Virus record (IMG/VR): IMGVR_UViG_3300011559_000001
Location: 1-64,000 of that record
Strand: one strand, 5' to 3'
From: a virus
Taxonomy: Duplodnaviria; Caudoviricetes
Length of the DNA stretch: 64,000 nt
Position numbers and translations under genes: made by a program. This document shows, piece after piece, positions 1 to 1,784 of this stretch; the stretch's first letter is position 1, and each line of letters opens with the position of its first letter. The notes below the pieces were generated by a model, which saw nothing but the letters and a program-made list of their open reading frames with translations, was not told the origin of the DNA and did not search any database.

Positions 1-48
1 TACCATCCAAACGGAAGGTCGCGAGTTCGATACTCGCCTATCGCTCCA
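1..48 (+). tRNA. 3' half of a Gly-type tRNA-like gene (truncated by window edge; anticodon arm non-canonical)
   Basis: ..TCCAA-ACGGA-AGGTC, T-arm GCGAG-TTCGATA-CTCGC, acceptor strand CTATCGC + TCCA (U73, typical of Gly). Confidence 0.75.
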
Positions 49-58
49 TCGTTTCACC

Positions 59-169
59 GGACAAGTGGTCGAGAGGCTAAAGACAGTGAGCACGGCCTTC
101 GGGACACTCACGGTTCAGGGACAACCCGTCCTGAGGTTACCCATGGGTTCGAATCCCATCTTGTCCACC
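59..169 (+). ncRNA. class-II tRNA-like RNA with anticodon replaced by a 16-nt UUCG-containing loop
   Basis: Acceptor GGACAAG/CTTGTCC, D-arm GTC..GAC, stem GTGAG/CTCAC, long variable arm TCAGG..CCTGA, T-arm ATGGG-TTCGAAT-CCCAT; ends ACCT. Confidence 0.75.
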
Positions 170-180
170 TAGTTTCTATA

Positions 181-325
181 GCGCAGGTAGTTCAGTTGGT
201 AAAACGCCACCCTTATAAGGTCGCCGGTTCGAATCCGGCATGGGACGCCAGTCCCATTAGCTCAGTTGGATAGAGCATATAAAACCAAGGTGGAGTCACA
301 GGTTCGAAGCCTGTCCAGCGCTCCA
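181..325 (+). ncRNA. tRNA-Gly body with a circularly permuted Arg-like tRNA nested in the anticodon arm (two-headed tRNA)
   Basis: Outer GCGCAGG/CCAGCGC-TCCA and CCACC/GGTGG; inner 213-282 = TTATA-AGGTC-T arm-ATGGGAC-GCCA-GTCCCAT-D arm-TATAA. Confidence 0.85.
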
Positions 326-343
326 AGTTTCAACAGTTCGATA

Positions 344-478
344 GCGTTTGTAGCTCAGCAGGTAGAGTGCTCGTAGATGGGGTTCGACTCCCCGCTGCCC
401 AACCGTGTGCAAGCACGGTTCGGCGGTTACTGGTTGCCAAACGAGAGGTCACGGGTTCGATTCCCGTCTTACGCTCCA
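344..478 (+). ncRNA. tRNA-Gly(GCC)-like gene with a 59-nt structured insert 5' of the anticodon loop
   Basis: GCGTTTG/CTTACGC-TCCA, CTCGT/ACGAG stem, TTGCCAA loop at 434-440; insert 375-433 has a second T-loop and a GNRA hairpin. Confidence 0.8.
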
Positions 479-492
479 GTTTCAAGTAACAC

Positions 493-568
493 GCGTGTGT
501 AACTCAGTTGGTAGAGTCTCAGCCTTCCAAGCTGTTGGTCACGAGTTCGAGCCTCGTCGCACGCTCCA
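493..568 (+). tRNA. tRNA-Gly(TCC)
   Basis: Canonical 76-nt cloverleaf, loop CTTCCAA, encoded CCA. Confidence 0.93.
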
Positions 569-578
569 TCCCTCTCTC

Positions 579-653
579 GGTCAGATGGCAGAGCGGTAAT
601 GCAGCGGATTGCAAATCCGTACCTCACTGGTTCGAATCCAGTTCTGACCTCCA
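579..653 (+). tRNA. tRNA-Cys(GCA)
   Basis: GGTCAGA/TCTGACC-TCCA, GCGGA-TTGCAAA-TCCGT anticodon arm. Confidence 0.93.
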
Positions 654-673
654 CCACCCTTCAAGGAACGTAC

Positions 674-871
674 ATGCCTGCTGGTAACCACCGTAAGTAC
701 TACGACGGATTGGACAAGCTTCAGGATGAGCAACAGGTGTCCACGCGAGTGGCCAACGATGTGCTTTACCTGCGCACACAGAAGGAATGGACGCAAGAGC
801 GCGAAGACACGTTCATCGCGCAAGCCAAGACGGGTGAGATCCCCGACATCACTCAGGTAGGAAAGGAATGA
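674..871 (+). CDS. hypothetical protein
   Basis: ATG after AAGGA RBS; overlaps next start. Confidence 0.6.
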   Translation: MPAGNHRKYYDGLDKLQDEQQVSTRVANDVLYLRTQKEWTQEREDTFIAQAKTGEIPDITQVGKE

Positions 872-1206
872 GCCAGACCAAGCGTTTCCAGTTCTCCGTC
901 CCGCGTCGTGAACCGGCCGCTGTGATCCCGCAGCCGGAAGAGATCCAGAAGACCTACGCTGAGTTCATGGCAGCCTTTGCCAAGGGTAAGGTCAGCAAGC
1001 TCTTCCTGAGCGGTGACGCTCAGATCCCCACCGACTACGCGTTGGTGAGTGACGGCGTTGGCCTGGTCACCCACATGCCGGAAATCCCCGGCGTGGCCAT
1101 CCGTGTCCTGCCCACCGGTGATGTGATCATCACGGTGGACGCTGACCCGACCAAGGCGCCCTACCAGGTGATCGGTGTCGAGTTGACCGTGGACATCGAG
1201 CTGTAA
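868..1206 (+). CDS. hypothetical protein
   Basis: RBS AAGGA, phage-like codon usage. Confidence 0.7.
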   Translation: MSQTKRFQFSVPRREPAAVIPQPEEIQKTYAEFMAAFAKGKVSKLFLSGDAQIPTDYALVSDGVGLVTHMPEIPGVAIRVLPTGDVIITVDADPTKAPYQVIGVELTVDIEL

Positions 1207-1212
1207 GTTTCA

Positions 1213-1309
1213 AGCCTCCGGCAACGGAGAACTTCCTTGGCGCCCAAGGGTACGGAGAGTTTACCTATCATCTCACCGTAACGACGTCAAGGCAGGTTGG
1301 GATAGGTTG
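1213..1309 (+). ncRNA. candidate small structured RNA in the tRNA operon
   Basis: Flanked by AGTTTCAA spacers like the tRNAs; GNRA hairpin and crossing helices. Confidence 0.4.
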
Positions 1310-1317
1310 AGTTTCAA

Positions 1318-1395
1318 GGTTCCTTAGCTCAGTTGGTTAGTAGCACCTCCCTGTTAAGGAGGGGGTCGTAGGTTCGAGTCCTACAGGAACCGCCA
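1318..1395 (+). tRNA. tRNA-Asn(GTT)
   Basis: GGTTCCT/AGGAACC-GCCA, CCTCC-CTGTTAA-GGAGG. Confidence 0.92.
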
Positions 1396-1400
1396 CACCT

Positions 1401-1430
1401 AGAGCCCCACCCTTCGGGGTGGGGCTTTTA
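1401..1430 (+). terminator. intrinsic terminator
   Basis: AGCCCCACCC-TTCG-GGGTGGGGCT followed by T run. Confidence 0.85.
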
Positions 1431-1445
1431 TTCCGGGGAAGAGGA

Positions 1446-1784
1446 ATGTTCGACGAAACACTGGTAAGCAGCGAAGTCTGTATCCAGTGCGGGGCCTGCT
1501 GCTCGGTGTATATCCGCAAGGGCACCACGGAGTTGGTATCAATCGATGAGGTCAACTCCACCGAGGATGTTGAGCTTGTCACTTGTCCGCACTTGCAAGT
1601 TAATCAGGGGCGGTATATCTGCGGGAACTACGAGGACCGACCGCAAGTATGTCGTGATTACAGTTGCCTACGTCGAGCCAATGAGCAGGACCTACCGATG
1701 TCAGAAGACAAGGTACTAGCCAGACGTGTGCGGCAAACGGTGCGTCAGGTGCACAAGAGGGAGATCGAACTTGTGCTCCTGTAA
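1446..1784 (+). CDS. YkgJ-like CxxCxxCC Zn/Fe-S protein
   Basis: CIQCGACC...CPHL...C.NYEDRPQVCRDY.C motif. Confidence 0.75.
   Translation: MFDETLVSSEVCIQCGACCSVYIRKGTTELVSIDEVNSTEDVELVTCPHLQVNQGRYICGNYEDRPQVCRDYSCLRRANEQDLPMSEDKVLARRVRQTVRQVHKREIELVLL

Follow-up and report, generated by a model that had tools for sequence, protein, structure and literature searches.

Nested and permuted tRNA-like elements in the tRNA cluster of a jumbo phage: candidate synthetase-recognised mimics

Several described systems come close to the RNAs considered here. YrlA Y RNAs (RF02553; Chen et al. 2014, PMC4201824) carry, on a Ro60-binding stem encoded beside a Ro60 gene, a module in which the parts of a tRNA follow one another in permuted order (T arm, closed acceptor helix, D arm). 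Lak megaphages possess a tRNA-Thr(TGT) with an intron that possibly encodes a tRNA of its own (Devoto et al. 2019, PMC6784885), and the tRNA cluster of phage T4 includes rnaC and rnaD (species 1 and 2), small stable RNAs that do not decode. tmRNA and the tRNA-like structures of plant viruses can be aminoacylated and keep only the determinants read by the synthetase (G3·U70; A35 and C36). Phage tRNAs are also reported to counter tRNA-targeting defences (PMC11464382, PMC11555353, PMC10264068). The phage locus set beside these systems here holds four consecutive tRNA-shaped elements, and in three of them (elements 1, 3 and 4) the insert in the anticodon loop is a tRNA fold itself.

The window, a stretch of 64,000 nt, makes up the opening 64 kb of a virus contig (C1) of 310,882 nt. 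The contig end repeats window positions 2-123; the genome is therefore circular, and element 1, in which the contig starts, can be completed. The elements sit in the tail of a tRNA cluster starting near C1 308.9 kb. Xanthomonas phage RTH11 (312 kb) is the only record broadly matching the region, with 75% identity over 59% of window 1-1450 and 90% identity in an upstream non-coding block. Because RTH11 has phiKZ-like genes (a split RNA polymerase subunit and an internal head protein) and this genome gives a weak tubulin match, the phage is treated as a phiKZ-like jumbo phage; its host is probably a Xanthomonas relative. Three normal tRNA genes on the plus strand follow the elements, namely tRNA-Gly(TCC) at 493-568 and tRNA-Cys(GCA) at 579-653, both found by ARAGORN and Rfam, and tRNA-Asn(GTT) at 1318-1395, found by ARAGORN and the final tRNA of the cluster. 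A G+C hairpin and T run at about 1401-1430, after tRNA-Asn, looks like a terminator by eye and is also present in RTH11, while a terminator scanner was silent. GTTTC spacers, described in the original prediction as common to elements and tRNAs, occur 10 times in 3.4 kb, the genome-wide density being 0.63 per kb; they stand in front of elements 2-4, tRNA-Gly and tRNA-Asn, and tRNA-Cys lacks one. Most neighbouring ORFs are of unassigned family; among them are a CxxCxxCC protein and an ORF weakly matching a 3' exoribonuclease. In the long ORFs of the phage, the glycine codons GGT and GGC occur 34 and 35 times per thousand, respectively.

Further features distinguish the cluster from that of RTH11 or accompany the elements. 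Position 38 of the tRNA-Gly anticodon loop is C in RTH11 (L002:14009-14085) and A here, the tRNA-Tyr of RTH11 is missing from this genome, and the tRNA-Ser(GGA) that RTH11 has in its cluster lies elsewhere (C1 302553). A stand-alone YrlA-like permuted RNA at L001:14020-14155 (C1 about 310019-310152), composed of a T arm with an 8-nt loop, a long hairpin and a D arm, is kept in RTH11 with a different middle hairpin; this genome has no Ro60 gene. Between tRNA-Met(CAT) and tRNA-His lies a strongly folded non-coding block of about 300 nt (L001:14244-14546; C1 310243-310545), about 90% identical in RTH11 and without an Rfam match. A tRNA-sized RNA at L001:13847-13920 (C1 about 309846-309919), with a terminal stem and ACCA and without T or D arm, is missing from the corresponding site in RTH11.

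All four tRNA-shaped bodies predicted on the plus strand are present, and none has a normal 7-nt anticodon loop: the loops of elements 1-4 measure 85, 16, 77 and 66 nt. ARAGORN, expected to return pseudo or undetermined calls, was silent on the outer bodies and called none of the four, its calls in the window being Gly(TCC), Cys and Asn only. Rfam returned only sub-threshold tRNA, YrlA and tmRNA fragments across the elements; for tmRNA the score was 10.7 bits against a cut-off of 47, and an ARAGORN tmRNA search of the genome found none. Nor did any Rfam intron family match, the inserts of 16-85 nt comparing with some hundreds of bases for a group I or II core. Acceptor stem, D arm, T arm and NCCA are present in elements 1, 3 and 4, with 7, 6 and 5 of 7 acceptor pairs, respectively. 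An assembly chimera, named beforehand as a possible refutation, is judged unlikely, since another assembly record, L206, shows no difference over the 3,235 nt that take in the origin and all four elements (the reads may be the same), and one contig of a public freshwater sequencing run agrees with 381-544 at every base. Window base 1 (T) is a probable edge error, being C at the contig end and in L206. The claim that each insert is well folded stood for elements 3 and 4 (z -3.99 and -3.82 against shuffles) and fell for element 2 (z +0.26). In all four elements the modelled fold lies 6-9 kcal/mol above the predicted minimum-energy fold, from which it differs, so that the structures rest on covariation rather than on energy.

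Element 3 (181-325, plus strand) is a double-elbow RNA. Its outer Gly-type body (anticodon stem 207-211/289-293, T arm 298-314, TCCA 322-325) has ACC at 284-286 as positions 34-36, within a 1x6 internal loop, and its insert (213-282, plus strand) is a circularly permuted tRNA: between stem strands 213-217 and 278-282 come, in order, a variable loop, a T arm (223-239), a 7-bp acceptor helix closed by GCCA (240-257) and a D arm with an Arg-like A20 (260-276). Outer and inner body meet at their anticodon stems, with the 1x6 loop between them, which gives two elbows and a single free CCA end, and removal of the insert leaves the loop C-A-ACC-AA. Element 4 (344-478, plus strand) is a reduced double-elbow RNA whose outer Gly-type body has two U-U acceptor mismatches, an anticodon stem at 370-374/441-445, TTGCCAA at 434-440 (GCC being 34-36), a T arm at 451-467 and TCCA at 475-478. 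Its inner module (375-433, plus strand) consists of a T arm (378-394), a long closed acceptor-like hairpin and, after it, a stemless D-loop-like segment with conserved GG; without 375-433 the canonical heptamer TT-GCC-AA results. The permuted YrlA-like order is complete in element 3 and lacks the D stem in element 4.

Element 1 spans 154 nt (C1 310654-310807), window 1-48 (plus strand) being its 3' part. It is a Gly-type outer body with a complete 77-nt tRNA within the anticodon loop, flanked there by 3 bases before and 5 after. The inner tRNA has its own 7-bp acceptor stem, an ACCA end at window 2-5 and the loop CC-AAT-AC with C33 and A34; ARAGORN, given the whole element, called this inner tRNA alone, as Ile(AAT). 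On the 3' side of the outer body lie TCCAA (6-10, TCC being 34-36), the 3' strand of the anticodon stem (11-15), the T arm (21-37), the acceptor strand (38-44) and TCCA (45-48), and removal of the inner tRNA leaves an 8-nt loop without U33. L155 and L168/L172 resemble element 1, with non-canonical rejoined loops and abnormal inner tRNA loops, and together the three look like mimics derived from a tRNA-as-intron route. Elsewhere, in L149:4972-5124, L171:2025-2177 and L152:6110-6261, a canonical tRNA-Phe or tRNA-Asn is nested in a tRNA-Arg(UCU) or tRNA-Lys(UUU), and exact excision of the inner tRNA restores canonical 7-nt loops (Arg UCU, Lys UUU). These loci are candidates, on their sequences, for tRNA-as-intron splicing, which deserves more weight for complete nested tRNAs generally.

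Element 2 (59-169, plus strand) belongs to class II: its body shows a Ser-like D arm together with G1-C72, G2-C71 and A73. The 16-nt loop on its anticodon stem (86-90/107-111) is capped by C(UUCG)G and offers no triplet. The element also has an enlarged variable region of about 31 nt and a T arm at 143-159, and its 3' end is ACC, CCA not being encoded. RTH11 has tRNA-Ser(GGA) at the syntenic site in place of element 2, and no homologue was found among the loci fetched. Decay of element 2 alone is a realistic possibility, if on balance an unlikely one.

Homologues were sought by pattern scans of IMG/VR and metagenomes, filtered by pairing grammar. All three nested designs were found in other phages; designs 3 and 4 recur in RTH11 and in unrelated phages, and stand together in this genome, RTH11, L066, L111/L117 and L246. 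The RTH11 orthologues of element 3 (L002:13850-13999) and element 4 (L002:13701-13838) lie immediately upstream of its tRNA-Gly, in swapped order and unannotated. Seven distinct element 3-type RNAs satisfy 156 of 168 pairs of the nested model against 64 of 168 of a two-tandem-tRNA model, and their inner helices, which the search grammar did not demand, form 32/35 and 43/49 pairs with 2-4 pair types per position; samples are small, and because outer helices were chosen for pairing and the permutation tests ignore relatedness, these pair counts and those that follow are not probabilities. From a plain alignment of element 3-type RNAs, RNAalifold recovered the nested fold, omitting the misaligned inner anticodon stem, with compensatory changes in 27 of 37 consensus pairs. 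In eight element 4-type sequences the anticodon stem pairs at 40/40 and the inner T stem at 38/40, and a model built from the eight scores further members above ordinary tRNAs. Since designs 3 and 4 are conserved with compensatory changes across RTH11 and unrelated phages, selection rather than decay, as originally proposed, is well supported for elements 3 and 4; the same search left element 2 without a homologue. With RTH11 the two mimics share 27/38 and 29/38 of the compared positions and the true tRNA-Gly 37/38.

Other searches gave tandem or partial relatives of these folds. IMG/VR scans with an exact-sequence element 4 pattern and with a constrained D-loop pattern had no matches, a neighbour-protein search yielded no related loci, and a stricter first architecture pattern returned mostly tandem tRNAs and YrlA-like tandem permuted modules. 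Matches in genome contigs held, on inspection, tandem or shortened tRNA-like units and no clear nested member, and matches in Synechococcus, Xylella and Pseudoalteromonas phages were rejected as nested bodies, not being nested on inspection. In a small test on two Xanthomonadaceae genomes, the element 4 model found only tRNAs of ordinary length. At L006:2040-2170, L007, L011, L020, L031 and L004, two permuted tRNA modules follow each other with no free acceptor end, and in L004 a related RNA precedes an ORF resembling Ro60 by eye. Bacterial genome loci (L325, L330, L360, L382, L336, L342, L344, L312 and L314), from Lysobacter, Arenimonas, Pseudoxanthomonas, Bradyrhizobium, Calothrix and others, hold tandem tRNA-like units with shortened anticodon arms that follow a common upstream motif. 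L005:1931-2670 (minus strand) and L017 carry five adjacent tRNA genes with anticodon loops of 24-37 nt resembling short hairpin introns, and L308:630-1340, in the small Xylella phage Usme, is an ORF-free block with several permuted tRNA-like modules.

The description of three bodies as Gly-type proved correct and stronger than first noted, the acceptor pairs, U73 and C35-C36 all being kept. Bacterial alpha2beta2 GlyRS reads G1-C72, C2-G71, U73, C35 and C36 (PMC10464925). All three class I bodies (elements 1, 3 and 4) have G1-C72, C2-G71, G3-C70 and U73; positions 34-36, assigned by register from the 3' strand of the anticodon stem, are TCC, ACC and GCC, respectively, so the Gly anticodon bases are not lost and stand on the 3' side of the insert. 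By sequence register, then, every major bacterial GlyRS determinant is found in each of the three. Treating the kept Gly triplets as proof of introns was dropped, since homologues give non-canonical loops. Purine4-pyrimidine69, a preference of L. plantarum GlyRS, is missing in elements 3 and 4 and in the normal tRNA-Gly of this phage. The determinants of the toxSAS FaRel2 are G1-C72, C2-G71, G4-C69 and Pu5-Py68; compared with these, G4-C69 is missing in all three bodies, position 4 being A, C and U.

Other phages show other identities. Valine identity depends on A35 and C36, and AlaRS reads G3·U70 and not the anticodon triplet (PMC9976931). A valine-type N-A-C is found in all bodies of L087 (4/4), L066 (3/3), L091 (2/2) and L117 (2/2), several of these RNAs having U73 or C73 instead of A73, and eight bodies in two phages (L246/L269 and L118) are alanine-type (G3·U70 with A73) with six different triplets. 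A triplet that the synthetase reads is conserved apart from its free wobble base, and one that goes unread drifts. The alanine-type arrays (L246:13-1750, L269:73-1094, L118:629-1231) use several scaffolds, among them permuted class II inserts, a multi-hairpin insert and a 10-nt loop. Identity is mostly uniform inside a phage and differs among phages. RTH11 is mixed, its orthologues having AAC with G73 and AAA with C73, which no single identity fits, and two L246 bodies are not alanine-type. A histidine-type G-1:C73 occurs in RTH11 element 4, L117 and L144, that is, in two lineages only. The fetched stretches of the valine- and alanine-type clusters yielded no call of a normal tRNA-Val or tRNA-Ala, whereas this phage keeps its normal tRNA-Gly(TCC). 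These patterns are evidence, at the level of sequence, that synthetase identity is the trait under selection, one able to differ between phages.

Taken as a whole, the array is likely to consist of functional, unspliced mimics recognised by a synthetase. The elements would be co-transcribed with the tRNA cluster, tRNA-processing enzymes of the host would trim them, and the outer body is predicted to fold as a normal tRNA with a free CCA end, a secondary structure backed by covariation. As the insert interrupts the 5' side of the anticodon loop, positions 34-38 could stay stacked on the stem and readable by a synthetase, whereas the second tRNA body should bar entry to the ribosomal decoding site; carrying the major GlyRS determinants, the three scaffolds are probably glycylated. 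Such RNAs may act as decoys or competitive inhibitors of host effectors that choose tRNA-Gly by its identity bases or charged state, candidates being anticodon nucleases, aminoacyl-tRNA acetyltransferases and CCA-end modifiers, and the true tRNA-Gly would be spared. The extra elbow would make the RNA more stable and offer another surface for binding, and identity differences between phages would track different host defences. Acceptor-reading toxins with switchable specificity exist (10.1101/2024.07.05.602228), and the faster divergence of the mimics than of the adjacent true tRNA-Gly, with the fold kept, counts in favour of the decoy reading. Counted against it are the mixed identity of RTH11, the valine-type RNAs without A73, the non-alanine L246 bodies, the missing purine4-pyrimidine69 and G4-C69 and the folds above minimum energy; a normal tRNA could serve as a decoy too, so the loss of decoding needs a separate reason. 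We infer that the chargeable decoy of the original prediction is the best remaining option, and an unspliced, synthetase-recognised, non-decoding decoy against tRNA-targeting defences is plausible, though short of an even prospect. It can be proposed more tentatively that jumbo phages possess a class of two-elbow, aminoacylated, non-decoding mimics, deployed as multi-scaffold arrays of one identity each (glycine here, valine or alanine elsewhere) against the particular tRNA-targeting defence of the host, and forming a retargetable RNA anti-defence system.

The nearest competitor to the decoy reading, which we hold to be rather unlikely, is that the RNAs regulate host takeover by binding GlyRS, EF-Tu or the elbow sites of the ribosome, tuning translation or diverting side-activities of the synthetase with no defence as target. 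The identity pattern obeys synthetase rules exactly, as this would lead one to expect, valine-type RNAs without A73 could bind uncharged, and T4 Vs modifies host ValRS. Plant-virus tRNA-like structures likewise keep A35 and C36 with either A73 or C73 (PMC9976931). Glycine codons are abundant in the phage ORFs, however, so that a block of GlyRS would harm the phage itself, and rapid divergence under a fixed fold is more in keeping with conflict than with housekeeping. Processing of the inserts offers two further readings. Intron-like precursors, from which host RNase P and a 3' nuclease would free the insert and a ligase rejoin the halves to tRNA-Gly, are improbable overall and most plausible for element 1 and for element 4, where removal of 375-433 would give, with the canonical TT-GCC-AA, a tRNA-Gly(GCC) that the phage otherwise lacks while GGC and GGT dominate its glycine codons; the exact loops of L149/L171 and L152 and the Lak tRNA-Thr intron that may encode a tRNA (PMC6784885) also speak for it. 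Yet rejoining would leave element 1 with 8 nt lacking U33 in the loop and element 3 with C-A-ACC-AA, the heptamers are non-canonical, often with A34, in most element 4 homologues, and elements 3 and 4 have closed inserts that offer no free tRNA ends. Ligases were sought too: the suggested scan for RtcB, Rnl2 and Ro60/TROVE, extended to Aat and RelA/SpoT, matched nothing in this genome with controls working (RTH11 has an annotated GTP pyrophosphokinase), four complete carrier phages have no RtcB, and a search for Rnl1 was empty with its control silent as well. With neither RtcB nor Rnl2 and with homologues rejoining to non-canonical loops, the original suggestion of maturation by a phage nuclease and ligase is weak.

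Alternatively, RNase P might cut element 1, and perhaps element 3, into active nicked or two-headed products, for instance mimics of the products of tRNA cleavage. M. smegmatis YrlA, whose 7-bp acceptor stem is closed, is cut by RNase P and gains CCA (PMC4201824), the inner acceptor of element 3 is closed by GCCA, and element 1 contains a whole tRNA; the closing loop in homologues is not NCCA, and this reading is highly improbable. Only slightly more can be said for the originally suggested non-ribosomal donation of glycine to a phage aminoacyl-tRNA-dependent enzyme, quite improbable on present findings. Mu Mom uses Gly-tRNA to modify DNA by established chemistry (PMC13219725), and major Gly determinants without decoding ability are the design expected of a donor. 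The genome gave no match to Mu Mom, in a search run without a control, and none to Aat. Two tandem small GNAT genes of 139-157 aa (L434:1432-2275, minus strand; C1 144.2-145.0 kb), for which a PDB sequence search found no match, could be the enzymes, but both are weakly RimI-like and distant from the tRNA cluster, and the valine- and alanine-type marks of homologous arrays would make the chemistry differ phage by phage, points that weaken the idea. Decayed pseudo-tRNAs or assembly chimeras, finally, deserve next to no credence for the array. Element 2 lacks a homologue, its insert is no more stable than shuffles, and the contig start falls inside element 1; the covariation in unrelated phages, the syntenic orthologues in cultured RTH11, the identical second assembly and the exact public-run contig stand against them, and for elements 3 and 4 this reading is already refuted.

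Selection for synthetase identity apart from decoding bears on the long-standing question of why phages carry tRNA genes, since codon compensation cannot account for it. Mimic genes are missed or miscalled by tRNA finders, and those of RTH11 are missing from its GenBank annotation. RTH11 is a cultured phage with two orthologues and thus experimentally accessible. Under the decoy reading, the identity of an array would predict which tRNA is attacked by the host defence.

Set beside the known systems, the elements share with each of them some features and differ in others. The permuted order of YrlA is common to the inner modules of elements 3 and 4, but here the module is borne by another, complete tRNA body whose CCA end is free. 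The best YrlA scores are 29.8 in the window and 44.2 in RTH11 against a cut-off of 69, and there is no TROVE gene; the elements are not Y RNAs, given these scores under the cut-off and the lack of a Ro60 gene. Element 1 is like the Lak intron in enclosing a tRNA, but it rejoins to 8 nt without U33 and its inner tRNA has C33 and A34, while the inserts of elements 3 and 4 are permuted and closed and have one helix in common with the outer body. T4 rnaC and rnaD resemble the elements as non-decoding RNAs of a phage tRNA cluster, yet rnaC has one 3' T arm and none was detected in rnaD, and neither has a second tRNA fold or a full outer cloverleaf. The alanine- and valine-type homologues recall tmRNA and the plant-virus structures in the determinants kept; the elements differ in having a D stem, no mRNA-like domain or tag frame, and a position other than a genome terminus. 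The phage tRNAs that neutralise PARIS and retron effectors are likewise tRNA-cluster genes engaged in a conflict over tRNA, and they are reported to decode and to replace the cut host tRNA (PMC11464382, PMC11555353), whereas the elements appear non-decoding. Double-elbow, nested or permuted phage tRNA mimics have no Rfam family and were not found in the literature searched, which included few subscription papers. Two tRNA elbows in one natural RNA would define a new structural class. Within that literature, the tRNA-encoding intron is already in print from Lak phages and the double-elbow designs fit no described family; to these this locus adds a glycine-type array on three scaffolds.
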